From NCBI RefSeq assembly GCF_003334785.1, contig NZ_QOWV01000008.1: 64,000 bases of DNA, one strand, 5' to 3'. Position numbers and translations under genes: made by a program. Below are positions 3,140 through 21,464 of the stretch, piece after piece. The notes below the pieces were generated by a model. That model was not told the origin of the DNA. It ran no database searches and was given only the letters and a program-made list of their open reading frames with translations. This DNA comes from Escherichia coli (GTDB lineage: Bacteria > Pseudomonadota > Gammaproteobacteria > Enterobacterales > Enterobacteriaceae). How positions within the stretch are numbered: the first letter of the stretch is position 1; each line of letters begins with the position of its first letter.

Positions 3140-3619
3140 ATGAGTTCTGATTACGCAGGAGAACTCATGATCTGGATAATGCTCGCCACGCTGGCGGTAG
3201 TGTTTGTGGTTGGTTTTCGGGTGCTGACATCCGGGGCCAGAAAAGCGATTCGCCGTCTCAGCGATCGGCTGAACATCGATGTCGTACCCGTGGAGTCGAT
3301 GGTCGATCAAATGGGAAAGTCAGCTGGTGACGAATTTTTACGTTATTTGCATCGTCCGGATGAGTCGCACCTGCAAAACGCCGCGCAGGTGTTGCTCATC
3401 TGGCAAATTGTCATTGTCGATGGTAGCGAACAGAACCTGCTGCAATGGCATCGGATTTTACAAAAAGCTCGCCTCGCCGCGCCGATTACCGACGCTCAGG
3501 TCAGGCTGGCGCTAGGTTTTCTGCGCGAAACCGAACCTGAAATGCAGGATATTAATGCTTTTCAGATGCGCTATAACGCGTTCTTTCAGCCTGCCGAGGG
3601 CGTTCACTGGTTGCATTGA
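3140..3619 (+). CDS. yicN: DUF1198-type small inner membrane protein
   Basis: 159-aa ORF with N-terminal TM helix; position after adeQ as in E. coli. Confidence 0.55.
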   Translation: MSSDYAGELMIWIMLATLAVVFVVGFRVLTSGARKAIRRLSDRLNIDVVPVESMVDQMGKSAGDEFLRYLHRPDESHLQNAAQVLLIWQIVIVDGSEQNLLQWHRILQKARLAAPITDAQVRLALGFLRETEPEMQDINAFQMRYNAFFQPAEGVHWLH

Positions 3620-3627
3620 AACCGTTT

Positions 3628-3695
3628 CGTCTTATCAGCCTACAGACCGCGCCTGACCTGTCGGGTGGATAAGACGTTCACGCCGCATCCGGTAA
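3628..3695. repeat. REP-like extragenic palindromic element
   Basis: gtcttatcagcctaca ... ggtggataagacgttcacgccgcatccggtaa; reverse complement resembles the REP consensus gccggatgcggcgtgaacgccttatcc. Confidence 0.5.
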
Positions 3696-3829
3696 TCTTT
3701 GCCCTGTTCCGTTTCGATCTTAACTCCAGCTCAAGCAACACCGTAAAAGTTGCAAAAACGTTAAATGCGTCACACATTTCAATGTTAAAGTGGTCGGCTT
3801 TTCCCCTGAAACATGCCACGGGTAACACC

Positions 3830-5020: not shown

Positions 5021-5060
5021 TATCAGGTAAAGAAGCGTTGGTCAGTAGTTGTTGCTGTTC

Positions 5061-5354
5061 TTACATATCCGGGCATTCTACCTTACCCAACGCTTCCCAA
5101 TAATTGCTCTGATTATTACGTTCCATCGCCACGATGGCCTCGCGTATATGTTGTTTATTGTTTTCATCTGACAACATTAACTTTTCCCACGCTTCATCTG
5201 ATAATGACGCCTGTGGCGTGCAAATTTTACGTAAATCTTGTAATACCGTGGTTTTCTCTTTTGCGGACTGCAGTGAGCTAAAAGGCGACTCGGCGTATAC
5301 GATGCCTGGCATAGCGAAAAAAGTGAAAATAAGCAGTAGTGTCGTTGGTTTCAT
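5061..5354 (-). CDS. yicS: small secreted protein (signal peptide)
   Basis: 97-aa ORF, N-terminal signal-like MKPTTLLLIFTFFAMPGIVYA. Confidence 0.55.
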   Translation of the reverse strand: MKPTTLLLIFTFFAMPGIVYAESPFSSLQSAKEKTTVLQDLRKICTPQASLSDEAWEKLMLSDENNKQHIREAIVAMERNNQSNYWEALGKVECPDM

Positions 5355-5575
5355 GGATTCAACCTTTTACAAATGTGTATCGAATGAAGCATAAGTGTAG
5401 TTTGCTTTCATCGCTCTCATCATGCTGTACGAAACGCGCTTGCGTGGTCAGTAAGAAGTGCCAGACTTTATATTCCACTTTTATTCCTTTTTATTCTTAT
5501 CGATAGCGTTTCGTTTTTTAAACCGCAGCGACCTTACCGCTATAGTCAGGTAATCATTAATAAAAGGATAAAAAA

Positions 5576-6394
5576 ATGAAACTGACAACACATCATCTAC
5601 GGACAGGGGCCGCATTATTGCTGGCCGGAATTCTGCTGGCAGGTTGCGACCAGAGTAGCAGCGATGCAAAACACATTAAAGTTGGCGTTATAAATGGCGC
5701 AGAACAAGATGTCGCGGAAGTCGCTAAAAAGGTGGCAAAAGAGAAATATGGCCTCGATGTTGAACTGGTAGGATTTAGCGGTTCGTTGCTACCGAACGAT
5801 GCGACAAATCATGGCGAACTTGATGCGAATGTCTTCCAGCATCGACCCTTTCTTGAACAAGATAATCAGGCGCATGGTTATAAACTGGTAGCGGTGGGAA
5901 ATACGTTTGTCTTCCCTATGGCGGGTTATTCCAAAAAAATCAAAACCGTGGCGCAAATAAAAGAAGGCGCGACAGTGGCGATCCCCAACGACCCGACCAA
6001 CCTTGGTCGCGCACTTTTACTGTTGCAAAAAGAGAAGCTAATTACTCTGAAAGAGGGAAAAGGGTTATTACCTACCGCGCTGGATATAACCGATAATCCT
6101 CGTCATTTGCAGATTATGGAACTCGAGGGGGCGCAGCTCCCGCGCGTACTGGATGATCCCAAAGTTGATGTAGCGATTATCAGCACCACTTACATTCAGC
6201 AGACCGGGCTTTCTCCGGTGCACGACAGCGTATTTATTGAAGATAAGAATTCGCCGTATGTGAATATTTTGGTGGCACGGGAAGATAATAAGAATGCAGA
6301 AAACGTGAAGGAATTTCTGCAATCTTATCAATCACCCGAAGTCGCTAAAGCGGCAGAAACCATTTTTAACGGTGGCGCGGTGCCTGGCTGGTAA
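5576..6394 (+). CDS. nlpA: lipoprotein-28, methionine-binding NlpA family
   Basis: 272 aa, lipobox LLAGC near N-terminus, MetQ/NlpA-like sequence. Confidence 0.8.
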   Translation: MKLTTHHLRTGAALLLAGILLAGCDQSSSDAKHIKVGVINGAEQDVAEVAKKVAKEKYGLDVELVGFSGSLLPNDATNHGELDANVFQHRPFLEQDNQAHGYKLVAVGNTFVFPMAGYSKKIKTVAQIKEGATVAIPNDPTNLGRALLLLQKEKLITLKEGKGLLPTALDITDNPRHLQIMELEGAQLPRVLDDPKVDVAIISTTYIQQTGLSPVHDSVFIEDKNSPYVNILVAREDNKNAENVKEFLQSYQSPEVAKAAETIFNGGAVPGW

Positions 6395-6397
6395 TTC

Positions 6398-7321
6398 TCA
6401 CTTATGCCGCGCCGGACGATTTATTTTTCTGGCGCGGCGACGGGAATCCATTGAAATCAAAATCACCGATGACAGAATCAGCAGCGTTCCCAGCCAGTCC
6501 GGTAATGTGAACGTGATCCCCAGCAACAGCAAAGAGAGTAGCGCGCTACTTAATGGTTCTGCACAGCTCAAAATGCTGGCTTTTGGACCGCCAATTAATT
6601 GTGCTCCTTTCAGGTACAGACTAAATGTCAGGGACGTACCAATGACCACCAAATAAAAAAACGCCAGAATCAAACTGCCGTTAACGACAAAGTTTGTTCC
6701 TTGTCTGGCATAAAAAGGCAACAGAATCAGACCGCCAATCAGCATACTCCAGCCGACGACTGGTAACGTGCCATAGCGGGCAATTAGCGTTGAGGGATAG
6801 GTGGTATAGAATGCAGCAGCAAATGCCGAGGCAATGCCCCAGAACAACGCGGCAGGAGAGATCGATAATGACGTCGGATTACCGTGTGTCACCAATAAAA
6901 AAGTCCCGACCAGCGATGTCAAAATAGCGCAGAAAACCAGAATGCCCGGGCGCGATTTACGCACCAGTGAGAACCAGGCGACGATAATCGTCGGTGAGAG
7001 GAATTGCAGCACCGTTGCCGTGGCTGCGTTCGATTTTTCGATGGTTAGCAAAAAAGTGAGCTGTACAGTTAGCGCGCCAACCACGGAAAAAATCAGCAGG
7101 CTAATGGCATCTTTATGATTGTTAATAATAGAAAAGATTTTATCGCCATGAACAAATGACAGCGTCAGTAGAATCAAACCGGCGAATATCAAACGCGTCA
7201 TAGTCAAAAACTGCGACGACATCTGGCTTTGCTCCATGATGTATTGCGCGCAGACCCCTGAACTTCCCCACAACACGGCGGCAATCAGAACGTTCAGCAT
7301 CCCCTTTCTGGTGGAACCCAT
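6398..7321 (-). CDS. yicL: EamA/DMT family transporter
   Basis: 307 aa, ~10 TM segments, position between nlpA and setC. Confidence 0.7.
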
Positions 7322-7431
7322 TTTTCCCTCTGCATACTGTTTTGTCGTTTATGTATGCAGGCATGATAGCAAAAATGGCGAGGATGGCTCTGTTTGCGCC
7401 ACGCCGATTTTTCTTAGCCCAGACTGGTGAG

Positions 7432-8616
7432 CTAAATATCTTTAATAAACAGCAGGCAAATCATCGCAATACCCAACATCCCTATCGCCAGCCAGAACAA
7501 CGCATGGTAGCTCCAGATTTCAACCATAATTCCGTCAACAGAGCCGGCGATAATCCAGCCGACGCGTGAAGTATTTGCATATAACGTTGTCGCAGAGCCT
7601 ATTTTTTCAGGCATCAAGTCCTGAAAATAAAGCATGCCGATACCACAGAGAATACCAAGGAAGATGGCATTAAGAATTTGCAATTCCAGCTCAACCGCCG
7701 GAGTCGTCGCCATGAGTACGCTGGCGTAAAAACACATTCCACTCACGATAGCAATGAGCATTAATAGTCGCTTGCCAATACGTTTCATGTAATAGCCTGC
7801 GATTAACATCATCGGAATTTCCAGACCGGCAGCGATACCAATCATTTCTCCAGCCAGTTTATCGGTTAGATGCAGTTCATCAATAATAAATAGCGGCATA
7901 TTTATCATGTAGAGATTATTCGCCGCCCACATCATTGAACAGACCACAAAAAGTAGCCGCGTATCCCGCTTCCTGTGGGTGGAGGGTAAAATTTCTACGG
8001 GTTGGGTAACGACAGGAATATTTCTTTGTATTGATGGCAAAAACAACCAGACTATCAGTCCGCAAACAACAAATGCGATGGCAGCGGTGAGATACATCAC
8101 TTTAAAACTAAATCCCATTGCCAGTTCATAAGCGAGCGGTGGCCCGATAACCCAGGCAAGCGAGATCTGAGCACGTAAAAATGTACTGAACATGACCGTC
8201 TCACGGCCTGTTCTGTCGGCGTGTTCACGGGCGAGGGCGAACATTTGCGGGTTTGCGGTGGAAGCAAAACTACTCAGAAGTACGCCCGTTGAGAGGAGAA
8301 TGAAGTAGTTGCGATTCCACGCAAAAAGCGTGCAGGCCAGCACTCCAAATAAGCAACATAGCAGAATCAGTAATTTACGGTCGCCTTGTTTATCGGAGTG
8401 CCTTGCCAGAAATTGACTGACCAGAATTCCCATAATAGCGCTACCGGTGAAGAAAAAACCTACCATTATAGGACGGGCTTTCAGTTCATCTGCGAGGAAT
8501 ATACTTAGGGTAGGAGTCTGAAGAGCGCCCGCAATACCCGTCAGAAAGGCGACAAGTAAAAATGCCGCGGCAGTGAGATCAAGTATTTTTGATGGAGTGG
8601 TAGCCGTTTTTTGCAT
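7432..8616 (-). CDS. setC: MFS sugar efflux transporter SetC
   Basis: 394 aa, 12-TM MFS; neighbour of selC in E. coli. Confidence 0.8.
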   Translation of the reverse strand: MQKTATTPSKILDLTAAAFLLVAFLTGIAGALQTPTLSIFLADELKARPIMVGFFFTGSAIMGILVSQFLARHSDKQGDRKLLILLCCLFGVLACTLFAWNRNYFILLSTGVLLSSFASTANPQMFALAREHADRTGRETVMFSTFLRAQISLAWVIGPPLAYELAMGFSFKVMYLTAAIAFVVCGLIVWLFLPSIQRNIPVVTQPVEILPSTHRKRDTRLLFVVCSMMWAANNLYMINMPLFIIDELHLTDKLAGEMIGIAAGLEIPMMLIAGYYMKRIGKRLLMLIAIVSGMCFYASVLMATTPAVELELQILNAIFLGILCGIGMLYFQDLMPEKIGSATTLYANTSRVGWIIAGSVDGIMVEIWSYHALFWLAIGMLGIAMICLLFIKDI

Positions 8617-9248
8617 TCTTCTGAATCACCGGGCGAAAAAATATAACTGAGTTACAAATAAGTACCAGTCGAATGAGTATTGTATTAAGAATTTTTGAGT
8701 ATCGCTGATACAACCAGAAAGCAATGCTAGCGCAATATTATAGGGCCAGCAATTGAGATTATTAGTAAAAGCATGTTAAGAATTAATTACCGAATTTATA
8801 TATTAATTATAGTAAGGCAATGAGCTATTTTTGATAGTAAAAATAAAACAAGTTGATTTGATATATTAAATGAACAAATTAATCTTGATGGCAGTCTGAT
8901 TATTGGTGAAGTTTATAGTCAGTTTTTTTCGCCAGCGGTTAAAGAAATAGAATAGTCGTATAAAAAAGGGTGTTCTGGGGCGAGTAAAACAACATCTTCA
9001 CCTTAATGGCGATACAGTTGGCTGAGAGTCAGCAGGGGGGCAAATCACCTGCAAATAAACACGGCGCATACTGGCGTGAATATCGCGGATGCGTTCGAGG
9101 ACAGAAGAACCGACAGGCGGATTCTTCAGCCGCTCATCGTCCATCACAAAACCTTAGACCAGGTATTCCTGAAGCCGATTGAATATTGAGCAGTAGAAAA
9201 TATCTGGATTGACAGTATTACAAGGGGTTGGAGAACGTCAGGAGAGGC

Positions 9249-9273
9249 ATTTTGGCGGAAGATCACAGGAGTC
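9249..9273. repeat. attL core: duplicated 3' end of tRNA-Sec
   Basis: 25-nt attttggcggaagatcacaggagtc identical to 21074..21098; sequence diverges immediately on both sides. Confidence 0.85.
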
Positions 9274-9399
9274 AAAATTGACATATAACAATTTGATTCC
9301 AATCGTTTATATTTATCAGCTCTAATTCATTTATACACATCCTTATACACATAATATCTGTCGATTAATTTTTACACGTATCTTCACGCACGTTAACTC

Positions 9400-9700
9400 A
9401 GGAAAAAAATTTTTTTTCGAAAGAACTGTTCACACTGTTCACCTTTCTGTTTTCTCCTTTTATTTCAGTTTGATAGGTGGTGAATAATGGGTGAAGGGTG
9501 AACATTCGATTCTTCACCTCCGGCATTCTGCCGGTGTGACTTGTGCAGGGGATTAATCCTCCGCACTGAAATCACACAGGGAGAAAAAAGTTTTTTTGAT
9601 TTGATTGTTCATCTTTCGTTTTTCTCTTTTAATTTCAGTGTGATAACGGGTGAATATACGGTGAAGGGTGAACAGTGGATTGTTCACTTTCGGGGAATTC
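9400..9700. repeat. crr-like region: two ~120-bp direct repeats carrying TGTTCACC/GGTGAACA iterons
   Basis: Unit 1 about 9403..9525 and unit 2 about 9583..9700 share (a)8-9ttttttt...tgttca...tttctc...atttcagt.tgata..ggtgaa...ggtgaagggtgaaca; iteron motif matches the P4 alpha-binding repeats. Confidence 0.7.
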
Positions 9701-9705
9701 AGGGA

Positions 9706-9731
9706 TAAAAAAAGACCGGCAGATGCCGGTC
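9706..9731 (-). terminator. rho-independent terminator after alpha
   Basis: Minus-strand hairpin gaccggcatctgccggtc followed by TTTTTTTA, directly 3' of the alpha stop at 9739. Confidence 0.7.
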
Positions 9732-9738
9732 AGATGAG

Positions 9739-12072
9739 TCAGGCTGTTGCAGGGTCGTCACATTTCGGCAGCCAGTCGCCGTAGCTTTCCTCTTTCAGCG
9801 TCAGGTTGGTCTGTATCCCCTGTTTGGTATGGCGCTTCTCGTAATTCAGTCCGTATTCCTTCAGCATCACCGGCAGCCCCAGCCCGAACATTTTCAGACT
9901 GAGTACATTCCGGTAGCCGTTTGCCTCCATGTAGGCCAGATAGGCGTGATAGAGGTATTTACGGTAATTACGCGGGATGATACTGGCGTTCCCCATATAC
10001 ATGCCGCTGGTCTGCGGCAGGGTTTCCAGATAGCCGATAAAATCAAACGTCGGGTCGGCATCCCGTTTGATGTTCAGTGCCTCGTCTGAGTTCTGCTGGG
10101 ACTGAAGCAGTGACCGGGCGAGCATCGGGTCGCTGAACTTCTGCATCAGGTAACGCACGATGACCGCCAGCTCGCGGGTGATTTTGTCCTTAAGCTGCGG
10201 GTCGCGCTCCTGCGGGGCTATCTGTTCCGGGAAGTGAATAATCACCCGCCGGCGTGACACGCCGCCGCTGCGGTCGGTGAAGCGCATCGGGTTATTGTTC
10301 ACGGCCAGAATCACCGCCGGGATGTGCGTGGAGTACGCATCCCGGTATTTCGGGTCAACGGACACCGCATCGCCGCCGGTGATGGCCTTGAGTCCGGCAC
10401 CGTCGCCGCTCCATTTTTCCTGGTCCGGCAGGCGTATCAGTGAGAAGCCAGTTAACGCGGCACGTTCACGCGGGGATTCCAGCGTCTCGATGGTGGCCGA
10501 CGTGGCGTTATCCTCACCGGCCAGCAGGGTGGCTATTTCGGCCATGATACTTTTGCCGCTGCCGCCGGGACCGGTCACCTCCAGAAAGAGCTGCCAGTCG
10601 TAGCGGTTTGCCAGCACCATAAACAGTGCGGCCAGAATCACGTCGCGTTTTTCCGCACGGCCACCGGCGGCACGGTCAAGCCAGCGCCAGAATGCGGGGG
10701 CGTGGGTTTCCAGCGTTTCACCTTCCACCGGCGGGGTGAAATCCACATCGCACAGGGCGCGCATCCAGTGTGACGGACTGTGCGGGTGGAACGTGCCGTT
10801 CTGCGTGTCGAGCACGCCGTTACGAAAGCCAATCAGGCGGCGGGAGGGGGCTTCCTGCTGCGGAATAATCAGCTTCAGGGTGTCCACCACGGAGGCCACC
10901 TTCCCGGAGGAGAACGGCGCGCGCAGACGCTGAAACAGCCCGGCCACATCCCGGGCAAAGTCCTGTGGTGGCAGCACCTTCCAGACACCATTTTCATAGC
11001 GGGACAGAAGCTGGCCGTTGGCATCGACCGCGAGCGCCTCGCCGTAATGCTCATAGATACGCATGGCCTTTTCGCTGGTACTCATGGCGGAAAACTCCGC
11101 TTCGCTCATGGTGTCGAACGGGCTTTCAGCCGGTGGCCGGATGGCATCATAAATGGCCTTACGGGTGGTTTCCCCGCCGTACTGCGTGAAGGCATCATTC
11201 CAGTCACCGAAGACCGGCGGCAGGGCAACAACGCCCTCACACGCATCTGCGGCTGCGGCGGCTTTTTTCTGGCCGTCACCGCTGAGGTCACGGTCTGCGG
11301 CAAGGACAATCTGACAGGCCGGATGCTTCTGCCGGGCAAGGCTGGCCAGAGAAAGGAGGTTCACGGAAGAAAGCGCCACCATCACCGTTTCACCGGTCAG
11401 GTGATGTACGGTAAGTGCGGTCGCGTATCCCTCCGCTATCCACAGACGTTTTCCGGCCTGATTCTGTCCTTCAAGGGTGTGACAGGTGCCCCTGACCTGT
11501 CCGCCTTTCAGGGTGCGCTTACGGCCGTCAGCACTGATTAACTGAAGGTTAACCAGTTCGCCGCTGTCGTCATACAGTGGCACCACAAGGTCACCGGCGC
11601 GCCAGCTCACGCCACCGGCTCTGTGTGTGCCGGTCAGCATCCGGCATTCCCGGCCGGGAAAGCCCTTGCGGGTCAGGTAGGCGTTACCGGTTCCGGGACG
11701 GGTTTTCGCCATCAGGGTTTGTGCCAGTGCGGCGGCGTTCTTCCGGGCGGCTTCTGTTTCAGCACCGGCGGCGGCCGTCACTGCCGGGTCAGCCGGGGGC
11801 AGGCAGCCGGTCACGGCAGCCACCTTTGCGGCCGCGTCGGACGGGGAAACACCAAACACCTTTTCAACCAGTTTCAGGCCGTCACCGGCACCACACTGAT
11901 TGCAGTACCAGGTGCCGCGCCCCTCCCTGTCATCAAAACGGAAACGGTCACTTCCGCCACAGACCGGACAGGGCTGATGACGGTTTTTCAGCACCTGAAT
12001 CCCCAGCGACGGGAGAATACGCGGCCAGTGGCCGAGCGCATGGCTGACGGTGGCGGTTACGTTCATTTTCAT
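9739..12072 (-). CDS. P4 alpha-type primase/helicase
   Basis: 777 aa, the size of P4 alpha; N-terminal CPVCGG...CNQCG zinc-binding primase motif; Walker A GPGGSGKS in C-terminal half. Confidence 0.9.
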   Translation of the reverse strand: MKMNVTATVSHALGHWPRILPSLGIQVLKNRHQPCPVCGGSDRFRFDDREGRGTWYCNQCGAGDGLKLVEKVFGVSPSDAAAKVAAVTGCLPPADPAVTAAAGAETEAARKNAAALAQTLMAKTRPGTGNAYLTRKGFPGRECRMLTGTHRAGGVSWRAGDLVVPLYDDSGELVNLQLISADGRKRTLKGGQVRGTCHTLEGQNQAGKRLWIAEGYATALTVHHLTGETVMVALSSVNLLSLASLARQKHPACQIVLAADRDLSGDGQKKAAAAADACEGVVALPPVFGDWNDAFTQYGGETTRKAIYDAIRPPAESPFDTMSEAEFSAMSTSEKAMRIYEHYGEALAVDANGQLLSRYENGVWKVLPPQDFARDVAGLFQRLRAPFSSGKVASVVDTLKLIIPQQEAPSRRLIGFRNGVLDTQNGTFHPHSPSHWMRALCDVDFTPPVEGETLETHAPAFWRWLDRAAGGRAEKRDVILAALFMVLANRYDWQLFLEVTGPGGSGKSIMAEIATLLAGEDNATSATIETLESPRERAALTGFSLIRLPDQEKWSGDGAGLKAITGGDAVSVDPKYRDAYSTHIPAVILAVNNNPMRFTDRSGGVSRRRVIIHFPEQIAPQERDPQLKDKITRELAVIVRYLMQKFSDPMLARSLLQSQQNSDEALNIKRDADPTFDFIGYLETLPQTSGMYMGNASIIPRNYRKYLYHAYLAYMEANGYRNVLSLKMFGLGLPVMLKEYGLNYEKRHTKQGIQTNLTLKEESYGDWLPKCDDPATA

Positions 12073-12086
12073 GGTGTTGTTCTCCT

Positions 12087-12407
12087 TCAGTGCAGTACCG
12101 GCGCTTTTATGTGACGGGCACAGAGTTCATCCATCACAACCAGCCCGAGAAAGGACAGCGACGGCGCGGCCTTCAGGGGGCCGGATTCCATTAAATCTTC
12201 CAGCAGGGCACAGGCTATCTGACGCCCTTTTTCCTCACCGTGCTGGCGCAGATAAAAGCCTTCCAGCTCAGCGGCGATGGCCGCCTCCAGTGACTCAAGG
12301 GTGAGATGCGGGTAGCGGTGCTGACGTTCGCACACGGTCAGCCAGGCACAGGCGACAGCGCGACGGTAAAGGGCAGCGCGTAAGACGGGCGGTAAGGGGG
12401 TTTTCAT
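12087..12407 (-). CDS. hypothetical protein, P4-like satellite backbone
   Basis: 106-aa ORF immediately upstream of alpha, same strand. Confidence 0.5.
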
Positions 12408-12542
12408 TTGTTTTCCTCCCTGTGACAGATGACTGCATTCCGTGCCGGTTGCATTAACTGATAAGGCATATCTGCGTCTCCTGAAGACGTGCGTATCCCT
12501 GCGCGAATACGCACATTTAATTTTTCGGGTGTCGTTTTTTAA

Positions 12543-12998
12543 TTACAGATAATTGCGGTAACTGTTATCCGGGGTGATTTCCGGGTCAGGCTCCGTGCGG
12601 GGAATTTCCCGCCATTCCCGCGCCACCGGTGCCGCCCGGCTGACCGGAACAGGGTCCTGCGGGTAAATATCCAGATATTTCTCCCGCCATTTCTGTAATT
12701 CCGGGTCTCCGGCCATTTCTTTCAGTACCGCATGCCGGTTTACGGGGCTGCGTTTAAACAGGTCAGGACGGTCACAGGTAAATTCCCGCAGAAAACGCCC
12801 CAGCGGGATGTCTGTGGTGCGCCCGTCGGCGATGATACGCACAAGGATACTGAATTTACGGCGGTACGGGTTCCAGACAATTTCCGGGCAGCGGTACGGC
12901 ATTTCCCACGGAATACCGTCTTCCAGAATGCCGACCACGGCCACATCGGGAAAACCGGCAGAACGGTAAATCTCACCGGGCTGGGGAAAATCAAACAT
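12543..12998 (-). CDS. hypothetical protein, P4-like satellite backbone
   Basis: 151-aa ORF, same strand as alpha, in the P4 left operon position. Confidence 0.5.
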   Translation of the reverse strand: MFDFPQPGEIYRSAGFPDVAVVGILEDGIPWEMPYRCPEIVWNPYRRKFSILVRIIADGRTTDIPLGRFLREFTCDRPDLFKRSPVNRHAVLKEMAGDPELQKWREKYLDIYPQDPVPVSRAAPVAREWREIPRTEPDPEITPDNSYRNYL

Positions 12999-13857
12999 GC
13001 GTCCTGTCTCCCCGGTCTTTCTGCTGGGCGAGAAAATCGCGGCACAGGCCTTTGGCTTTCAGCTCATTCAGCACAAAATCAATATCTTCATTCAGGTAAC
13101 TGAAAATATGCGGAATGTAGAGCTGATGCAGGCCGGAGAGTTCACGGTGAATCAAATCACCCCCAACAAACTGGGATACGGCGCTGGCGCGGTTGAGCTT
13201 ATGGTAAGCCTCAATGCTGAGGTGTTCACGGGCGTCATGACGCGCTGAGACGGTCTGAGGGGCTTTTTTATTACGCACGGGACACCTCCACCACCGGCAG
13301 ACGGGCAGCAAGGGAGAGCACATAGTCACGGACAAGGGAACGGCGGGCGCTGCGTTCATCACCGGCGACGGTGCGAAGCATACAGATACGGGGATGACGG
13401 TCTGTGCGACGGACAGCCGCAAACACAAAGACAAATTCAGGGTGTGAGGGGGTAAGGGTTGTAGCCATGATGGCAGCCTCCTGTGAATAGCAAATAACGC
13501 TATCGCCGGAGTTCTCACGCTCGATGGCGATAGCCCAGACGGGGGTGAGAATACCGGCTTCACAGGATACCGGCCAGCCCGGAGGCTGCCCCGCCTGAGC
13601 TACCATTGACTCAGAGGCATAACATGCGATTGCGAACAGGATCATACCTGCACGGCAAACCACACGCCACACCATAATCTGGTGCTCTGTGGCGTTGATT
13701 GCGACACAAAAAAAGACGCATGGCGCGTCATATGTCGCCTGTGAATTGCTCGGGTTCTCACGCCCGGCTGCCGATTTTGCGGCAGCGGAAAAACTATATC
13801 CGCAAATGCCGGAAAAAGGCAAGCCAGAAAAAGGGAGTTTTTGCAGAGCGGGCATCA
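12999..13857 (-). other. P4-like immunity/early region with unresolved small ORFs
   Basis: Overlapping ORFs in several frames (12991..13563, 13271..13906, 12997..13248); only C-terminal parts look protein-like; position corresponds to P4 kil/cI-RNA/eps. Confidence 0.3.
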
Positions 13858-14124
13858 TCATGCGTCGTACCCCCGTTTGCGTCCGGCAATGCGTCCGGCC
13901 ATCCATGCGGTGACTTCAGAGTGCAGCCAGGCCACATTTTTACCGCCAAGACTCACCTGCGGCGGAAATTCCCCCTTACGGATGAGTTCGTAGATGGTCG
14001 AGCGTGACAGGCCGCACAGGTGCATCACTTCCGGAAGACGTAAAAAACGCTCCTGTGTGATGTCCGGCAGCGGCATCAGTGGCGTCACAGGGGCGGGAGA
14101 CGGGGAAGAAAAAACAGCTTGCAT
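13858..14124 (-). CDS. AlpA/Vis-family DNA-binding regulator/excisionase
   Basis: 88-aa ORF with [48 protein letters not shown], typical AlpA-type HTH; true start may be the internal Met (MPLPDITQ). Confidence 0.8.
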
Positions 14125-14403
14125 CGGGCTACCTCGTTAATGTCCATACAGCACCGGATAAGTCCGTCCGGCTTCAGGTAGCGCTTTATTTTGTGAATAT
14201 TTTCAGCAGACGCAACAGGGGGGATTTGTTCCGGCAGCCTTACAATGCTTGTGTATTTTTTGTTCATCTCCACTTAAAGTCATTTAAAGCCACTTAAAGC
14301 AATTCGTAATTTTTATAGTGAAATACAAATCGTTTTTTCTTATTCATTCCCGGCGAATTAATAAAAACAAACAGTAATAAACAGCACAAAAAGCCCATCA
14401 ACG

Positions 14404-14508
14404 GGTGAACAGTGGTGAACAGACGGTGAACAGTCATTACTGCGATTGTTCACCCTTTAACTTACTGTATTACTTATCTTTTTTCTTATGGTGAACAGAG
14501 GTGAACAG
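14404..14508. repeat. ori-like iteron cluster
   Basis: Five direct GGTGAACAG copies (14404, 14414, 14425, 14490, 14500) plus one inverted TGTTCACC (14447) between vis and sid. Confidence 0.7.
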
Positions 14509-14586
14509 TAAAATATAAAAAAACAAACAGTAAGCCGGTTTTTCCTACGACCTTTTCCTGGCTTGCCGGTGTGAGGATGAGTCTCC

Positions 14587-14604
14587 TGTGTCAGGGCTGG
14601 CACA
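14587..14604 (+). promoter_or_regulatory. TGT-N12-ACA activator site of a P2/P4-type late promoter upstream of sid
   Basis: tgtgtcagggctggcaca lies ~75-90 bp upstream of the sid ATG; Ogr/Delta-activated late promoters carry TGT-N12-ACA near -55. Confidence 0.5.
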
Positions 14605-14676
14605 TCTGCAATGCGTCGTGTTGTTGTCCGGTGTACGTCACAATTTTCTTAACCTGAAGTGACGAGGAGCCGGAAA

Positions 14677-15411
14677 ATGTCTGACAACACCATCCCTGAA
14701 TATCTGCAACCCGCACTGGCACAACTGGAAAAGGCCAGAGCCGCCCACCTTGAGAACGCCCGACTGATGGATGAGACCGTCACGGCCATTGAACGGGCAG
14801 AGCAGGAAAAAAATGCGCTGGCGCAGGCCGACGGAAATGACGCTGATGACTGGCGCACAGCCTTTCGTGCAGCCGGTGGTGTCCTGAGCGACGAGCTGAA
14901 ACAGCGCCACATTGAGCGCGTGGCACGCCGGGAGCTGGTACAGGAATATGACAATCTGGCCGTGGTGCTGAATTTTGAACGTGAACGCCTGAAAGGGGCG
15001 TGTGACAGCACGGCTACCGCCTACCGGAAGGCACATCATCACCTTCTGAGTCTGTATGCAGAGCATGAGCTGGAACACGCCCTGAATGAAACCTGTGAGG
15101 CGCTTGTCCGGGCAATGCATCTGAGCATTCTGGTACAGGAAAATCCGATCGCCAACACCACCGGCCATCAGGGCTACGTCGCACCCGATAAGGCTGTCAT
15201 GCAGCAGGTGAAATCATCGCTGGAACAGAAAATTAAACAGATGCAAATCAGCCTCAGCGGCGAGCCGGTTCTCCGGCTGACCGGACTGTCAGCGGCAACA
15301 CTTCCGCACATGGATTATGAGGTGGCAGGCACACCGGCACAGCGCAAGGTGTGGCAGGACAAAATAGACCAGCAGGGAGCAGAGCTTAAGGCCAGAGGAC
15401 TGCTGTCATGA
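14677..15411 (+). CDS. sid: Sid-like capsid size-determination protein
   Basis: 244 aa from ATG 14677 preceded by GAGGAG; alanine-rich coiled-coil protein; first gene of a sid-delta-psu operon. Confidence 0.75.
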   Translation: MSDNTIPEYLQPALAQLEKARAAHLENARLMDETVTAIERAEQEKNALAQADGNDADDWRTAFRAAGGVLSDELKQRHIERVARRELVQEYDNLAVVLNFERERLKGACDSTATAYRKAHHHLLSLYAEHELEHALNETCEALVRAMHLSILVQENPIANTTGHQGYVAPDKAVMQQVKSSLEQKIKQMQISLSGEPVLRLTGLSAATLPHMDYEVAGTPAQRKVWQDKIDQQGAELKARGLLS

Positions 15412-15908
15412 TTTACTGCCCGTCGTGTGGACATGTTGCTCACACCCGCCGCGCACATTTTATGGACGATGGCACCAAGATAATGATTGCACAGTGCCGG
15501 AATATTTATTGCTCTGCGACATTTGAAGCGAGTGAAAGCTTTTTCTCTGACAGTAAAGATTCAGGAATGGAATACATTTCAGGCAAACAGAGATACCGCG
15601 ATTCACTGACGTCAGCCTCCGGTAGCATGAAGCGCCCGAAAAGAATGCTTGTTACCGGATATTGTTGTCGGAGATGTAAAGGCCTTGCACTGTCAAGAAC
15701 ATCGCGGCGTCTGTCTCAGGAAGTCACCGAGCGTTTTTATGTGTGCACGGATCCGGGCTGTGGTCTGGTGTTTAAAACGCTTCAGACCATCAACCGCTTC
15801 ATTGTCCGCCCGGTCACGCCGGACGAACTGGCAGAAAGCCTGCATGAAAAACAGGAACTGCCGCCAGTACGCTTAAAAACACAATCATATTCGCTGCGTC
15901 TGGAATGA
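15408..15908 (+). CDS. delta: Delta, duplicated Ogr-type zinc-finger late activator
   Basis: 166 aa with two Cys4 motifs (CPSCGH...CRNIYC and CRRCKG...CTDPGCG); start overlaps sid stop. Confidence 0.8.
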   Translation: MIYCPSCGHVAHTRRAHFMDDGTKIMIAQCRNIYCSATFEASESFFSDSKDSGMEYISGKQRYRDSLTSASGSMKRPKRMLVTGYCCRRCKGLALSRTSRRLSQEVTERFYVCTDPGCGLVFKTLQTINRFIVRPVTPDELAESLHEKQELPPVRLKTQSYSLRLE

Positions 15909-15981
15909 GGGCTGCCGGTTAACACCGGCCGTCGCCGCACACCGTATTTTTATTCTTCAGCATGATGAGAAAGAGATAACG

Positions 15982-16554
15982 ATGGAAAGCACAGCCTTAC
16001 AGCAGGCCTTTGACACCTGTCAGAATAACAAAGCAGCATGGCTGCAACGCAAAAATGAGCTGGCTGCGGCCGAACAGGAATATCTGCGGCTTCTGTCAGG
16101 AGAAGGCAGAAACGTCAGTCGCCTGGACGAATTACGCAATATTATCGAAGTCAGAAAATGGCAGGTGAATCAGGCCGCCGGTCGTTATATTCGTTCGCAT
16201 GAAGCCGTTCAGCACATCAGCATCCGCGACCGGCTGAATGATTTTATGCAGCAGCACGGCACAGCACTGGCGGCGGCACTGGCACCGGAGCTGATGGGCT
16301 ACAGTGAGCTGACGGCCATTGCCCGAAACTGTGCCATACAGCGTGCCACAGATGCCCTGCGTGAAGCCCTTCTGTCCTGGCTTGCGAAGGGTGAAAAAAT
16401 TAATTATTCCGCACAGGATAGCGACATTTTAACGGCCATTGGATTCAGACCTGACGCGGCTTCGGTGGATGACAGCCGTGAAAAATTCACCCCTGCGCAG
16501 AACATGATTTTTTCGCGTAAAAGTGCGCAACTGGCATCACGTCAGTCTGTGTAA
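15982..16554 (+). CDS. psu: Psu polarity-suppression protein
   Basis: 190 aa, MESTALQQAFDTCQNNKAAWLQRKNELAAAEQEY..., recalled as P4 Psu. Confidence 0.8.
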   Translation: MESTALQQAFDTCQNNKAAWLQRKNELAAAEQEYLRLLSGEGRNVSRLDELRNIIEVRKWQVNQAAGRYIRSHEAVQHISIRDRLNDFMQQHGTALAAALAPELMGYSELTAIARNCAIQRATDALREALLSWLAKGEKINYSAQDSDILTAIGFRPDAASVDDSREKFTPAQNMIFSRKSAQLASRQSV

Positions 16555-16718
16555 AATTCCCCGAAAATCCGCCCGTTTTTACTGAAAAAAGCCATGCATC
16601 GATAAGGTGCATGGCTTTGCATGCGTTTTCCTGCCTCATTTTCTGCAGATCGCGCCACGCCCGGCGTGGCCTGAGCGTGTCAGCGCAACTGCATTAAAAC
16701 CATCCCACAAAGCGGGCG

Positions 16719-16737
16719 GGCGAGGCGGGGAAAGCAC
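16719..16737. other. cos site (P2/P4-type 19-nt cohesive end)
   Basis: Exact ggcgaggcggggaaagcac, ~165 bp downstream of psu as in P4. Confidence 0.8.
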
Positions 16738-16979
16738 TGCGCGCTTACTTAGATGCGTGAATTTATTTATATCACTGAAGTATATCCCTAAGCTCATTTC
16801 TCAAAGGGCCTATGGTTGCACAAGGTTGTACCATGGCATTCAAAACTTTTTAAACCAAGAATGACAATTTCATTATTAGGCCGGAATAGTTACTAATTTT
16901 AGTATAGGTTGCGATTGTTTAACGCATTTTTTATTATGATGCAGATTTTATTATTACTAATGGGGTGCAAAAAACACGT

Positions 16980-18269
16980 ATGAAAAAAAATGTTGGTAAC
17001 CGCAATAAAAATTCTGATGTGCTTATTCTTAAAGGTATGTTGAACAATTTAAAAGATGGTTTAAATAATTTTGAATTATTGCTTAAATTGCAGTTTAAAA
17101 TATTGGTGTGCGTGATGAGATGTGAGCGGAAAATTAAGTTTCTTAAAAAGAATAATGCTCATTTAAGGTCGGTGTTAAAAAAATCAAGACTTCCAAAAGA
17201 AAAATCTCTGGCAGTAAAAGAAAAAATTAAATACAATTCTGAAGTAATTACTGCTGAAAAATTCAAGATATATACGTATAAAATGTTTGGCGATGCTGTT
17301 GCATTTTTATACATCGATAAATATACAATTAAACAGTTATACTACAATGTACATAATTACAATGTTAAAGAAACGTCGGGGGATTTGAGCGGTAAGTCTG
17401 GATTGCGAGAGGAATGGGAATGCGTAAAACTTGCATGTGATAATAAAGTTCCAGCTCTGTTGCATGATATTACAATGAGTATAAGGCATGGAGATGTATC
17501 ACTTTTAGGTAAAGATGAGCCATTTATTATTGAGATGAAATCAAGCTCAAATACAAATAAGAGAGTTGAGCGGCAAAAATCTAACCTTGAAAAATTAGGA
17601 AGTTTCATAGCAAAAGACGAAGCTGAAAATTTTCGAGGGATTCCATTGTTAATCAGGAAAAATTTGTTAACTGAAGAGGAATCATATTCTCAGGTTTTAA
17701 ATGAGTGTCTTAATGATTGTCGCAGCAAAGGAATGGCTTTGGTTGAAGCTGAAAAAGGATTTTATATCTGCGCAGTTAGAGAAGGGAATATGGCTTCTAT
17801 GCTAGAAAATATAGATTTTGATGAAAAAAAAGAAGTTTTTCCTGTATTTCTCAATCAATATAAAAATAATGGGGAGTGGCTACCATTAACACCATTTACA
17901 CTATTAATTAACGATCCTTACGATCTCCATGATTTTATCGAAGGGGAATTAACAATAGCTTGTTTTTTAATGCTCGATGAATACAAAAAAATTGCTATAG
18001 AACTAGGCTATGAATTAGTTTTTGTTTCTAATGATGAATATAGTATCTTGTTAAAAAGAATTGGTGAAGATATTATATTTGGTGTTTCCTGGCAAATGTT
18101 GTTAAGAGTTCCATTAGAGATGATGTCCATGTCATGGTTGATAAAAGAAAGTATTAATATATATAGTAACTCCCTAGAAAATAGCACCCATAATGATGAA
18201 TTAAATCAGGGGCAGGGAAATACTAAAAATTCATTATTCGAAAAATACAAGAATTTATTTTCTTACTAA
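16980..18269 (+). CDS. hypothetical cargo protein A, possible PD-(D/E)xK nuclease
   Basis: ORF 16965..18269 (GTG) or ATG 16980; strongly AT-rich, Lys/Asn-rich; motif LHDITMSIRHGDVSLLGKDEPFIIEMK; no homologue recognised. Confidence 0.6.
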   Translation: MKKNVGNRNKNSDVLILKGMLNNLKDGLNNFELLLKLQFKILVCVMRCERKIKFLKKNNAHLRSVLKKSRLPKEKSLAVKEKIKYNSEVITAEKFKIYTYKMFGDAVAFLYIDKYTIKQLYYNVHNYNVKETSGDLSGKSGLREEWECVKLACDNKVPALLHDITMSIRHGDVSLLGKDEPFIIEMKSSSNTNKRVERQKSNLEKLGSFIAKDEAENFRGIPLLIRKNLLTEEESYSQVLNECLNDCRSKGMALVEAEKGFYICAVREGNMASMLENIDFDEKKEVFPVFLNQYKNNGEWLPLTPFTLLINDPYDLHDFIEGELTIACFLMLDEYKKIAIELGYELVFVSNDEYSILLKRIGEDIIFGVSWQMLLRVPLEMMSMSWLIKESINIYSNSLENSTHNDELNQGQGNTKNSLFEKYKNLFSY

Positions 18270-18301
18270 TTAAGCATTGTAATTATATTTGATTTTTTCT
18301 A

Positions 18302-18335
18302 CAGGCTTGGACGGAATCATATAGCTCCAAGCCTG
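18302..18335. terminator. bidirectional hairpin between the convergent cargo genes
   Basis: caggcttgga (18302..18311) pairs with tccaagcctg (18326..18335); flanked by T-rich sequence. Confidence 0.5.
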
Positions 18336-18370
18336 TTGTGTCGGTATCAAAAAGAAAGTGATATTATTGT

Positions 18371-19744
18371 TTATCTAATATATTTTGTTACTTCCATATT
18401 ATCTTCATCGTCAAAAGAGTACTCAACCATCATACGACTATTTTTACCTGACTTAATATCTTGAAGCCAAGCTGAGGCAACCCTAGGGTCTAAATGCTGT
18501 TTTCTACTCAGCTCATTATTTTTTAGCCTATCAAGCCTTATTGCTCTTTGAAGAGTTTTATCGATGTAGTCTTCCAAATCAATGGACAACCTCCTTTTTG
18601 GATATAAATATTGGTATTCATCACACAATAGTACTCCTGGTAATTTAATTTCGCGTAGGTCGAAAGAATACCAACTATAGTTTTTAGACTCATTAGCTAA
18701 TTCCGAAACTAGATGAGCCCCATTTTGTTGTAAGAGAGATATTTTGTGATCGATGCTAATGTCAGATATTTCTCTTAAAGACTCAAAATGCATGTTTTCG
18801 TAGATAGTATTTAATAAAATACTCTCCATGTAAGAGTAAAAATCAGTACCATCGATGATAATATTAGTTTCATTGTAGACTGCAAGAGACATAAGATATA
18901 TGAAGAAAACTGCGGGAGTACTATTACCTCTGTTTATATCAAGTCTAAGGGAGTTGACATAATCAGGCGGAGAGTTTGAGAAAATTTCTCTTATTAACCA
19001 GTCTGGAATAGTGGTTCTTGTTAGAATGTCAGCGTTCAAACTTGAACGACATAAAAAAATACACATCTTTAATTTTAATTTTATTGAAAATGATGGGAAT
19101 AAATGATCGATGAAAGATAAAATACATGTATACTCTGCTAAGTCTGTTTGTTGCAACTTTTCTTTTATTTCATTTTCAAGCATTTTTAATTTAAAAAAAT
19201 CATTCCTTTTTTCTAATATTTCCCAATGAAATAATTGCTCCTGAGCGTACGCATGCCCCTCTAAAATAGCTAGCATGCTTAAAGGAATGTTTAGGATTTC
19301 TTGATAATTATTAACATACCCAAAGAAATGGACTCTGATATACACACCCATATCGTCATCATATTGTAATGATGCTTTAATATTTTTATAATTTAATTTA
19401 TTAGTGCTGTTGTTTTTGAAGTGATAATGTAAAGTAATTTCAGTATCATCAACTAATAAATTATCAAAAGCCTCCTTTGTTTCATATTTAAAATAGTTAT
19501 ATAGCCGACATGAATAATTTAACCCCCAGTGAGTTGTAGAACAATCAAGTAAATGGATTGTTTCATGGAGATATGTTTTATAAAATTCAATTTCGCTATC
19601 ATCAAAATCATATATGCTTTTACTGTCTATGATATTTTGTGCTTGCGGTAAACTTATATTTAATTCATCGTTTGAAATCTCAATTAAATGTGATGAAAAA
19701 TCATAAGAACCCAATGTTTTGCTGTTAAATATACATCCGCTCAT
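18371..19744 (-). CDS. hypothetical cargo protein B, HExxH motif (possible zinc metallopeptidase)
   Basis: 457 aa, AT-rich; N-terminal YLHETIHLLDCSTTH; start ATG overlaps the integrase stop (ATGA at 19741..19744). Confidence 0.6.
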   Translation of the reverse strand: MSGCIFNSKTLGSYDFSSHLIEISNDELNISLPQAQNIIDSKSIYDFDDSEIEFYKTYLHETIHLLDCSTTHWGLNYSCRLYNYFKYETKEAFDNLLVDDTEITLHYHFKNNSTNKLNYKNIKASLQYDDDMGVYIRVHFFGYVNNYQEILNIPLSMLAILEGHAYAQEQLFHWEILEKRNDFFKLKMLENEIKEKLQQTDLAEYTCILSFIDHLFPSFSIKLKLKMCIFLCRSSLNADILTRTTIPDWLIREIFSNSPPDYVNSLRLDINRGNSTPAVFFIYLMSLAVYNETNIIIDGTDFYSYMESILLNTIYENMHFESLREISDISIDHKISLLQQNGAHLVSELANESKNYSWYSFDLREIKLPGVLLCDEYQYLYPKRRLSIDLEDYIDKTLQRAIRLDRLKNNELSRKQHLDPRVASAWLQDIKSGKNSRMMVEYSFDDEDNMEVTKYIR

Positions 19745-20916
19745 AGCAAATCCCCTAAAAGATAATCAGAGTACCATTGAATCATCGTTTTCCTTTGAGA
19801 AAAATATTGTGCGTGATTATAGGTTCCTCGGATATTGTTCTTATCAACATGTGCTAATTGCATTTCAATCCAGGTACTATCAAATCCCTGTTCATGTAGG
19901 ATTGTTGACATTGTATGTCTAAAACCGTGACCTGTAGCACGTCCTTTGTAACCAAGTAACTCAATCACTTGTGAAACACTTTCTTTTGAAATTGGTTTGC
20001 TACGATTGTTCCTGCCAATAAAAATATAGGGATAATGGCCGGTGATAGGCTTTAGCTGTTTAAAGAGGTCTACCACCTGAGTAGACAAAGGTACAATATG
20101 TGGTCTGCGCATTTTCATACGTTCCGCTGGTATCTCCCATATACCTTTTTCGAGGTCTACTTCTTCCCACGTAGCAAAGCGCATCTCCTGCGTTCTTACA
20201 CCAGTCAGCATGACTATCTTCGTAGCATTTTTGGTGATGATGCTACCGGTATAAGCTTCGAGATCCCGAATAAAATGAGGCAATTCTTCGGCAGATAGAA
20301 ATGGATGATGTTTTTGCTTAGGAACGGCCAGAGCGATGGCTAAATCAGGCGCAGGATTGTATTCAGCGCGGCCAGTTATGATTGCGTAGCGATAAACCTC
20401 ACCGCACCTCTGACGTACCTTACGTGTTTTCTCTAGTGCTCCACGCTTCTCTATTCGTCGCAACACTTCAAGAAGTTCTAAGGGTTTGATTTCACTAATA
20501 GGACGTTTACCAATGAACGGGAAAACATCTTGCTCAAATGTTTTAATAATTTCTTCGCGGTAGGCAAGTGTCCAGCGATCGGCTTTATTTGAGTGCCACT
20601 CACGACATATAGCCTCGAATGAGTTTTCTGTTGAGAGCTGCTGTGCCAGCTTTTGGGCTTTACGTTCTTCCACTGGGTCTATGCCGTTTGCAACCTGCTT
20701 CCGAGCTGTATCGCGTTTCTCACGTGCTTCAGCTAGGCTCACAAGGTCGTAGCTACCAAATGACATTAACCGCGCTTTTCCGGCAAAGCGGAAACGGAAA
20801 CGCCAGCCCTTCGAGCCATCGGGATTGATAAGCAATGACAGGCCCTGCCCGTCGTTCAATGTGTATGGCTTGTCTTGGGGCTTTGCTCGTTTGATTTGTA
20901 TATCTGTAAGTGCCAT
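19741..20916 (-). CDS. int: P4-family tyrosine integrase
   Basis: 391 aa; N-terminus MALTDIQIKRAKPQDKPYTLNDGQGLSLLINPDGSKGWRFRFRFAGK typical of P4-type integrases; C-terminal catalytic region with HGFRHT...Y; adjacent to the tRNA. Confidence 0.9.
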   Translation of the reverse strand: MALTDIQIKRAKPQDKPYTLNDGQGLSLLINPDGSKGWRFRFRFAGKARLMSFGSYDLVSLAEAREKRDTARKQVANGIDPVEERKAQKLAQQLSTENSFEAICREWHSNKADRWTLAYREEIIKTFEQDVFPFIGKRPISEIKPLELLEVLRRIEKRGALEKTRKVRQRCGEVYRYAIITGRAEYNPAPDLAIALAVPKQKHHPFLSAEELPHFIRDLEAYTGSIITKNATKIVMLTGVRTQEMRFATWEEVDLEKGIWEIPAERMKMRRPHIVPLSTQVVDLFKQLKPITGHYPYIFIGRNNRSKPISKESVSQVIELLGYKGRATGHGFRHTMSTILHEQGFDSTWIEMQLAHVDKNNIRGTYNHAQYFSQRKTMIQWYSDYLLGDLL

Positions 20917-21073
20917 GTGTATAAGCCAAAAATATGTATAAAAAATCTATACACATCACTATACATATTTTTCATGGATTCAGGGAGATCTTGTCGGACG
21001 GTTACGGATGAGTGATTTACTATATGTTTTGAAAATAAAGGATTTTTAGACTCTCTCGGATGGTGACGGAAGA

Positions 21074-21098
21074 ATTTTGGCGGAAGATCACAGGAGTC
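21074..21098. repeat. attR core overlapping the 3' end of selC
   Basis: Same 25-nt sequence as 9249..9273. Confidence 0.85.
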
Positions 21099-21172
21099 GA
21101 ACCTGCCCGGGACCGCTGGCGGCCCCAACTGGATTTGAAGTCCAGCCGCCTCACCGGAGACGACGATCTTCC
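21078..21172 (-). tRNA. selC: tRNA-Sec (selenocysteine, UCA anticodon)
   Basis: Reverse complement reads ggaagatcgtcgtctccggtgaggcggctggacttcaaatccagttggggccgccagcggtcccgggcaggttcgactcctgtgatcttccgcca, the 95-nt E. coli selC sequence. Confidence 0.95.
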
Positions 21173-21464
21173 GCGCCTCGATTGCTACATGGAGGCGGGG
21201 CGCATTATAGCTACTTCCTTGAGTTTCTACATCCCCCAGATCAGTTTTTTCCGCCTAATACACGCAGCGTATTATCACGAAAGCATTATAGTTCATATAA
21301 AATCCATATTTTACAATGATATATGAGCGGAATTAACGCTACCACGATCACATAAAACAAGAATCATAAATTAATAACCAGATATCGGAATATTCGCTCT
21401 CACAGGGATGGTTTACAAAATGCGTTATCGGTCTCAGCACCCCTATAGCATCAAGGAAAAGTAG

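Follow-up and report, generated by a model that had tools for sequence, protein, structure and literature searches.

Positions 12999–13857 of the window (the whole 64,000-nt stretch of Escherichia coli DNA that was analyzed) are almost certainly the immunity and early-leader region of a P4-type satellite prophage, and essentially represent P4's own kil/eta-cI-eps segment, located on the minus strand. This reading is carried by identity to phage P4, by matches to RNA families, by the structure of the CI RNA, by complementarity and covariation between this RNA and its targets, by the small genes and by a conserved eta frame. All of these were observed directly, and no sequence evidence contradicting the assignment to the P4 immunity region was found. 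All mapped features of this segment are on the minus strand, and together they cover every base of it. An earlier note on the same DNA had delimited the segment as the gap between the start of a 151-aa ORF (12998) and the stop codon of vis (13858), and these limits proved exact. The note had further remarked that the gap corresponds in position to kil, the CI immunity RNA and eps of P4, which was borne out by alignment to P4 (97% identity), and had suggested that it might encode an RNA-based immunity factor or very small proteins. Both were found: the former is the CI RNA, and the latter are the products of kil (65 aa) and epsilon (95 aa).

RNAs and genes of the immunity region

The CI immunity RNA gene, including its precursor flanks, occupies 13523–13610 on the minus strand and is identical to that of P4 (88/88 nucleotides). 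It was detected by the Rfam C4 model (RF01695) with 74.9 bits (gathering score 45, E = 1.6e-13) over model positions 1–87 of 87, which places it in this RNA family. The predicted fold is a long closing stem around two hairpins (MFE −49.3 kcal/mol, z = −5.2). In an alignment of ten P4-like CI genes, 99.6% of the cells were paired in the consensus structure, compared with 28–52% in slid controls, and three pairs of the stem showed compensatory changes across ten relatives. Two segments of the molecule remain unpaired. Hairpin 2 has a 12-nt loop that contains box 1 (positions 44–52, UCCUGUGAA), and box 2 (positions 60–66, UUCUCAC) lies in the single-stranded joint. The sequence GCCA, which follows the closing stem at the 3' side, was the sole sequence-level hint of processing. 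Matches to the eukaryotic family mir-4520 elsewhere in the window (9522–9589; 25 bits, gathering score 90) were discarded as chance matches.

A promoter scan identified a putative PLE-type sigma-70 promoter (TTGCCT, 18 nt, TATAGT; 13793–13822, minus strand) inside the eta frame. It was the sole promoter-like site in 12900–14400, coincides with the '-10 consensus' feature of the P4 record X02534, is identical to the P4 sequence and is conserved in relatives. The predicted transcript begins with an IsrK-like leader, the seqA RNA (13709–13786, minus strand). The isrK model (RF01394) matched these positions at full length with 71.4 bits (gathering score 50), beginning 7 nt downstream of the -10 hexamer, and the c4-a1b1 model (RF03163) matched 13747–13799 on the same strand with 49.5 bits (gathering score 46.7). 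Thus, the covariance-model search that the earlier note had proposed for the CI RNA gave three matches in this region, C4, isrK and c4-a1b1, all above their gathering scores. IsrK-like and C4-like RNAs have been equated with the seqA and CI RNAs of P4 (PMC3632133, PMC4825925). The leader contains two candidate targets of CI on the minus strand, seqA box 2 (13755–13761) in the loop of leader hairpin 2 and seqA box 1 (13738–13745) just 5' of the terminator, and a terminator scan placed an intrinsic terminator at its end (stem 13715–13729 followed by a tract of seven T residues, minus strand). It differs from the P4 leader by a GC/CG swap in the first hairpin and by one base change in the terminator loop. 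A putative PLE upstream of seqA, together with a leader fitting both the isrK and the c4-a1b1 models, is the arrangement expected for P4-type immunity.

For comparative analyses we used a set of ten elements composed of the element in the window, P4 and eight E. coli loci at 67–95% identity; both the CI and the leader RNA were present in P4 and in all eight diverged loci. In a folding model, blocking of the seqA boxes increased the probability of the terminator stem in nine of the ten leaders (from 0.53 to 0.94 for the leader in the window), and had no effect on the terminator in one of the ten, that of locus L012. The model is consistent with the possibility that pairing at seqA would favor the leader terminator.

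It is unlikely, in our judgment, that the short leader RNA acts mainly in trans, like IsrK of the IsrK-orf45-anrP module of Salmonella Gifsy-1, by binding the long isoform or CI and opening the downstream ribosome-binding site; the leader would then be an activator or a sponge in addition to being a cis target of CI. Such a role is suggested by the full-length covariance-model match to isrK, which includes the terminal intrinsic terminator, and by the discrete 77-nt species that this terminator would yield. IsrK works in this way in Gifsy-1, where it is a trans-acting translation activator of its own long isoform, and the P4 seqA RNA is its structural homolog, whereas the documented role of the P4 leader is that of a cis target of the CI repressor RNA (PMC4825925). 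In addition, a requirement for the IsrK-like sequences found in P4-like prophages has been reported in S. Typhi (PMC3632133). The covariation described below does not discriminate between action in cis and in trans because CI pairing fits both equally. A function in trans, however, would add to the interpretation of the leader as the upstream target of CI, and would not replace it.

The first translated gene downstream of PLE is kil (13271–13468, minus strand). Its 65-aa product is identical to that of P4 kil at 64 of 65 positions and is an Icd-like cell-division inhibitor by the NCBIfam model NF033153 (phage_ICD_like; 76.9 bits, cutoff 25). A ribosome-binding site, AGGAGG, is located at 13475–13480, 6 nt before the ATG codon. 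This gene is contained, in the same frame, within a longer frame at 13271–13861 (minus strand), which PGAP annotated as a CDS in an identical E. coli genome. The 196-aa frame corresponds to P4 eta, within which kil is nested (PMC10111431). It uses the same ATG as P4 eta (199 aa in P4), and this ATG overlaps the stop codon of vis (ATGA). Pfam Phage_ASH matched residues 22–143 (E = 1.5e-24), and residues 143–190 correspond to an Icd-like domain. In 9 of 10 relatives, as distant as 67% DNA identity, no stop codon interrupted the frame, and the lengths of the spacer within it (98, 107, 62, 68 and 80 nt) all differed by multiples of three. Its phase is that of kil, its start lies upstream of PLE, and it is conserved and linked to vis by the ATGA overlap; these are the properties by which eta would be recognized from sequence. 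The earlier note had stated that full-length homology of one long ORF to a known protein would argue against its proposal. Eta, with its Phage_ASH and Icd-like domains, formally touches on this point, but it leaves the RNA elements in place: P4 has its promoter, leader, terminator and CI RNA within eta, and frame and RNA elements coexist there (PMC10111431).

At the downstream end of the segment, epsilon (eps; 12991–13278, minus strand) encodes a protein of 95 aa from a GTG start codon, and 94 of the 95 residues are identical to P4 epsilon. Its ends are those of the P4 epsilon CDS (7888–8175) and of a PGAP CDS in the identical genome of E. coli A1, and its product gave a full-length match to phrog_10016 (E = 8.9e-63). 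GGAGG is located 6 nt upstream of the GTG codon, and the stop codon overlaps the ATG of orf151. Based on identity to the P4 protein and on its position between kil and orf151, epsilon is predicted to be the P4-type helper derepression (anti-repressor) protein. The gene is hidden within a spurious 190-aa ORF (12991–13563), which was rejected as a gene; only its last 95 codons fit the P4 and PGAP annotations and the ribosome-binding site.

Overlapping ORFs in several frames, which the earlier note had described here, do occur. They include the 190-aa ORF and a 211-aa ORF (13271–13906), both on the minus strand, and ORFs of 83, 74 and 102 aa on the plus strand. We rejected the start of the 211-aa ORF at 13906, as only the nested 196-aa and 65-aa forms fit the P4 and PGAP annotations and the ribosome-binding sites, and the three plus-strand ORFs had no support. 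The impression that the composition of these frames is unconvincing is real for 13469–13861, because codon-position GC is flat there (0.55/0.53/0.57) and periodic in all neighboring genes (for example, 0.65/0.47/0.71 in alpha and 0.65/0.34/0.56 in eps). The view that the region has no clean ORF is right only in part: epsilon and kil are clean genes, and the eta frame is conserved and annotated, yet compositionally flat.

The satellite prophage at selC

The sequence from 9405 to 16719 of the window aligned with positions 4291–11624 of P4 at 97.7% identity, and 12500–14330 at 97% DNA identity. A base-level alignment across the immunity region showed 98% identity over 886 nt. Identity was 100% in CI, in the downstream segment (seqC) and at the kil start. 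Downstream of epsilon, the left-operon genes orf151 (12543–12998; 151 aa), orf106/cnr (12087–12407) and the alpha primase gene (9739–12072), all on the minus strand, are full-length, and the left-operon genes are 97–99% identical to P4. The upstream neighbor is vis (13858–14124, minus strand), which codes for the ORF88 excisionase/regulator of the AlpA type, has the ends given for ORF88 in the P4 records and is predicted to be translationally coupled to eta; its product is identical to P4 ORF88 at 87 of 88 positions and matched phrog_2790, an excisionase family, with E = 2.3e-17. Genes similar to sid, delta and psu follow beyond vis on the plus strand.

A TGT-N12-ACA dyad was found by pattern matching upstream of vis (14227–14244, minus strand), where, judging from the late promoters of P2 and P4, the site for the activator of PLL, the late promoter, would be expected. 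This candidate assignment rests on position and on the background on P2/P4 late promoters because the number of TGT-N12-ACA matches in the window was not above that expected by chance.

A 25-bp direct (att) repeat (9249–9273 and 21074–21098) marks the two ends of the element, which is about 11.8 kb long, i.e., of the size of P4. The second copy of the repeat overlaps the 3' end of the tRNA-SeC gene (selC; 21078–21172), and an intact tyrosine integrase gene adjoins it. For two cargo ORFs located between psu and the integrase gene, searches of Pfam, NCBIfam and PADLOC gave no match. E. coli strain A1 carries the region in identical form, and near-identical copies were detected in 1048 of 5426 complete E. 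coli genomes, or about a fifth.

Only the right 7.3 kb of P4 was matched in this element, and the gop/beta/cII/int part is replaced. This could point to a domesticated or defective remnant, in which the sequence of the region is intact, the immunity circuit has ceased to govern a replicating satellite, and CI and kil are kept only as relics or as a host-beneficial module. We consider such a scenario quite improbable, as the left-operon genes are full-length and nearly identical to those of P4, sid, delta and psu are also present, and the element has a P4-like size, the att repeat, an intact integrase gene and the selC location. Moreover, it is usual for P4-like satellites to have exchanged cargo and integrase modules.

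Complementarity and covariation of CI with seqA and seqC

Exact complements of CI, 7–10 nt in length, occur on either side of cI, at one upstream and one downstream site, as in P4-type immunity. Upstream, in the seqA leader, box 1 is complementary to 13745–13738 and box 2 to 13761–13755. The downstream target, seqC (13472–13518, minus strand), contains exact complements to CI positions 60–66, 44–52 and 21–30. Here, box 2 of the target (GUGAGAA, 13512–13518, minus strand) pairs with CI 60–66, and the complement of CI box 1 (13487–13479) runs into GGAGGCUGCC (13481–13472), the Shine-Dalgarno region of kil, which is complementary to CI 21–30. Box 1 of seqC is thus fused to the kil Shine-Dalgarno sequence in UUCACAGGAGGCUGCC (13472–13487, minus strand), which includes the AGGAGG motif. 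Overlap of the downstream target with the ribosome-binding site of kil is another property of P4-type immunity, and box 1 directly overlapped GGAGG followed by ATG in 61 of 99 other elements.

If these complementarities reflect pairing, the boxes should change together. The ten-element set contained seven variants of box 1 and four variants of box 2. In each of the ten elements, CI paired with its own boxes at 8 of 9 positions in seqA box 1, 9 of 9 in seqC box 1 and 7 of 7 in box 2 at both sites; boxes taken from other elements of the set averaged 5.3–6.3 pairs. We also scanned IMG/VR for the conserved CI core, leaving the loop open, and obtained 99 distinct elements. With complements defined as Watson-Crick or G-U pairs, a cognate complement was detected for seqA box 1 in 95, for seqC box 1 in 92, for seqA box 2 in 94 and for seqC box 2 in 91 of these elements, and all four cognate sites were present in 86 of the 99. 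When boxes were swapped among the 99 elements, the rate was 2–12%. This three-way covariation is strong evidence, at the level of sequence comparison, that CI pairs with both seqA and seqC.

That the region is purely protein-coding, with one Ash/Icd-like fusion protein and epsilon, and that the RNA matches are by-products of coding conservation, has a negligible probability: the single 196-aa PGAP CDS, its Phage_ASH and Icd-like matches and the conserved frame with indels in multiples of three would fit it, but coding constraint cannot explain pairing boxes in which three distant sites covary and keep their pairing with two unpaired CI segments, and it is also contradicted by the compensatory changes in CI stem pairs, by the lack of codon-position GC periodicity in the upstream part of the frame, by the promoter and intrinsic terminator inside it and by P4 genetics, in which cI acts as an RNA (PMC4825925, PMC3632133).

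We calculated duplex energies of the 88-nt CI with the target regions and with 40-nt windows slid along the sequence. The CI-seqC duplex had z = −4.4, and none of 500 shuffles was as good. The energy of the whole-molecule CI-seqA duplex was indistinguishable from that of shuffles (z = −0.23). In the scan, GC-rich coding sequences at other places reached scores as good as those of the true sites, and seqC alone stood out; likewise, register-free duplex energies with the CI center did not separate cognate from non-cognate pairs. Because duplex energies fail to make this separation, the case for seqA rests on box-level complementarity and covariation.

A separate observation concerns the combinations of boxes. 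The 99 elements contained 23 variants of box 1 and 11 variants of box 2 in 39 combinations, and 11 of the box-1 variants occurred with two to four different box-2 partners. Thus, the boxes appear to reassort.

Proposed circuit and related systems

The following circuit is proposed for the element, with expression in this strain, RNA processing, Rho-dependent termination and the effect of seqA on the terminator taken from the P4 literature or from modeling. In the immune state, the constitutive PLE inside the eta frame would produce the leader RNA with its seqA boxes and intrinsic terminator, and transcripts stopped there would form the short IsrK-like RNA. Read-through transcripts would be processed to the stable, highly structured CI RNA (13523–13610). 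In P4, this processing involves RNase P and PNPase. The two unpaired segments of CI would pair with the seqA boxes in the leader and also with the seqC boxes that closely follow CI, box 1 of seqC being fused to the Shine-Dalgarno sequence of kil; a third CI segment would cover the remainder of the kil ribosome-binding site. Pairing at seqC would block kil translation, and transcription could then terminate. The main termination site in P4 (timm) is Rho-dependent. As a result of termination, epsilon, orf151, cnr and the alpha primase would not be made and the prophage would be quiet. Pairing at seqA would favor the leader terminator, so that CI may limit its own synthesis. In P4, CI enhances termination at the leader terminator. 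In the late state, the upstream late promoter would fire and vis would be translated, as would eta through the ATGA overlap; ribosomes would then cross seqA, CI and seqC and make transcription insensitive to immunity.

These steps follow what has been described for P4. Pairing of CI with seqA and seqC leads to premature termination of the left operon (PMC3632133, PMC4825925). According to secondary accounts, the PLE transcript is processed to give CI, translation of Kil occurs only when transcription reads through, and Eta is translated only from the upstream late promoter (PMC4825925, PMC3632133, PMC10111431). The promoter lies inside eta, kil is a truncated Eta, eta is coupled to alpA/vis and translation of Eta prevents termination (PMC10111431).

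By sequence, the region is one that is already known, as it corresponds to the P4 immunity region in all testable respects. The P4 region (PLE, seqA, cI/seqB, seqC, kil/eta and eps; about 7888–8763) has been dissected genetically since the 1990s. It has the same gene order and the same overlaps as the region described here, with no difference in seqC or in the kil ribosome-binding site. The element differs from P4 in that it is located at selC and carries a different integrase and different cargo. Since CI is identical to that of P4 at all 88 positions, we predict that the prophage and P4 are homoimmune. The assignment is also of use for annotation: pipelines label 13271–13861 as one 'Icd-like protein' and epsilon as 'hypothetical', and leave the nested kil, the seqA leader, the PLE promoter and the CI RNA unmarked.

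The immI region of P1 and P7 (c4, the a1/b1 and a2/b2 targets, icd and ant) contains the same Rfam families, C4 and c4-a1b1, and has the same logic, i.e., an antisense RNA processed from the leader of its own operon, with two loop segments and with targets upstream and downstream. The downstream target covers the ribosome-binding site of an Icd-type ORF, as here, and the P1-like phages D6 and RCS47 matched 13429–13616 of the window at 72–75% identity. However, the controlled genes are different: the antirepressor gene ant in P1, and the P4 left operon (epsilon, orf151, cnr and alpha) here. P1 is not known to have an overlapping frame of the eta type that is coupled to an excisionase gene. The N15-type plasmid prophages and the IsrK locus of Gifsy-1 share this architecture and, like immI, came up here as weaker matches at the DNA or model level. 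The linear plasmid-prophages N15, phiKO2 and PY54 showed 76–80% DNA similarity to the C4 and leader parts of the region (window positions ~13500–13810). Their anti-immunity locus contains a C4-type RNA and icd, whereas the replicon type and the downstream genes differ from those of the element.

It is possible, although we propose this tentatively and regard it as somewhat doubtful, that the immunity specificity of P4/P1-type C4 RNAs resides in two separate short boxes, each mirrored at two targets, and that these boxes reassort. If both boxes are needed for repression, they would form a combinatorial 'barcode' that allows satellites and prophages to coexist in one cell without cross-immunity, and exclusion groups could be predicted by reading the barcode from genomes. 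Heteroimmunity of individual pairs, such as P4/phiR73 and P1/P7, has long been known; we found no treatment of box reassortment at population scale in the literature searched. The covarying, reassorting boxes offer a modest lead for predicting satellite immunity groups from sequence.

The sole part of the region that clearly differs from P4 is the variable spacer between the leader terminator and CI (13611–13708, minus strand), with a divergent patch at about 13615–13660. It is 98 nt long here and 107 nt in P4, an in-frame difference of 9 nt accompanied by about 20 substitutions. The 98-nt allele is also present in locus L012, and the 107-nt allele in P4 and in loci L005 and L006. The immunity region of the window is a mosaic, in which P4-type boxes are combined with a spacer allele common to another lineage.

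Specificity boxes of the CI RNA

CI, the P4-type antisense immunity RNA, carries two unpaired specificity segments, box 1 and box 2. These covary perfectly with the four target boxes across 10 P4-like elements, that is, the window (CI at 13523-13610 on the minus strand, seqA boxes of the leader within 13738-13761 and seqC boxes within 13472-13518, where box 1 is fused to the kil Shine-Dalgarno sequence), P4 and eight related E. coli loci (L005 to L132). The boxes also appear to be reshuffled from element to element: 99 distinct IMG/VR elements, detected by a scan for the conserved CI core, contained 39 combinations of 23 box-1 and 11 box-2 variants, and 11 of the box-1 variants each occurred with 2-4 different box-2 partners. 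Such reassortment among elements suggests a combinatorial immunity code.

Variation around the boxes

Clear divergence from P4 is confined to the spacer at 13611-13708, which separates CI from the leader terminator and is 98 nt long in the window and 107 nt in P4. The 98-nt allele is shared with the relative L012, whose specificity boxes differ from those of the window, whereas the 107-nt allele is common to P4, L005 and L006. As judged from this distribution, the immunity region is a recombinational mosaic. Every spacer length variant preserves the frame of eta, a 196-aa ORF (13271-13861, minus strand) which contains the 65-aa Icd-like kil. This frame was disrupted in one relative, E. coli strain M9 (locus L007, 232-831), where PGAP annotated an "ash family" pseudogene and a separate 65-aa Icd-like gene. 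Matches to both RNA models remained strong at this locus (CI, 86.1 bits; isrK, the Rfam model matching the leader RNA, 73.4 bits). Disruption of eta is therefore compatible with retention of both kil and the RNA circuit.

A further difference lies in the first hairpin of the leader, on its 5' side. Here P4 (X51522, about 8692-8693) reads CG, in contrast to GC in the window (13786-13787) and in each of the 8 other relatives. The CG weakens the hairpin and lowers the isrK score of P4 (60.8 versus about 71 bits); it could reflect either a long-standing sequencing error in the P4 entry or a change specific to P4.

Integration site, cargo and database matches

The satellite is about 11.8 kb long, is inserted at the tRNA-SeC gene selC (21078-21172) and is bounded by a 25-bp att direct repeat (9249-9273 and 21074-21098). 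It encodes its own tyrosine integrase (19741-20916), and its int/att module differs from that of P4. The interval between psu/cos and the integrase, a known hotspot for anti-phage cargo in P4-like satellites, is occupied by two large ORFs of 434 aa (16965-18269, plus strand) and 457 aa (18371-19744, minus strand), neither of which had a match in Pfam, NCBIfam or PADLOC.

When positions 2000-22000 were compared, two GenBank records named Campylobacter phage A18a/A11a (MG065686.1 and MG065691.1) showed 99.9% identity to about 8 kb of the window. It looks as if E. coli sequence was included in these phage assemblies.
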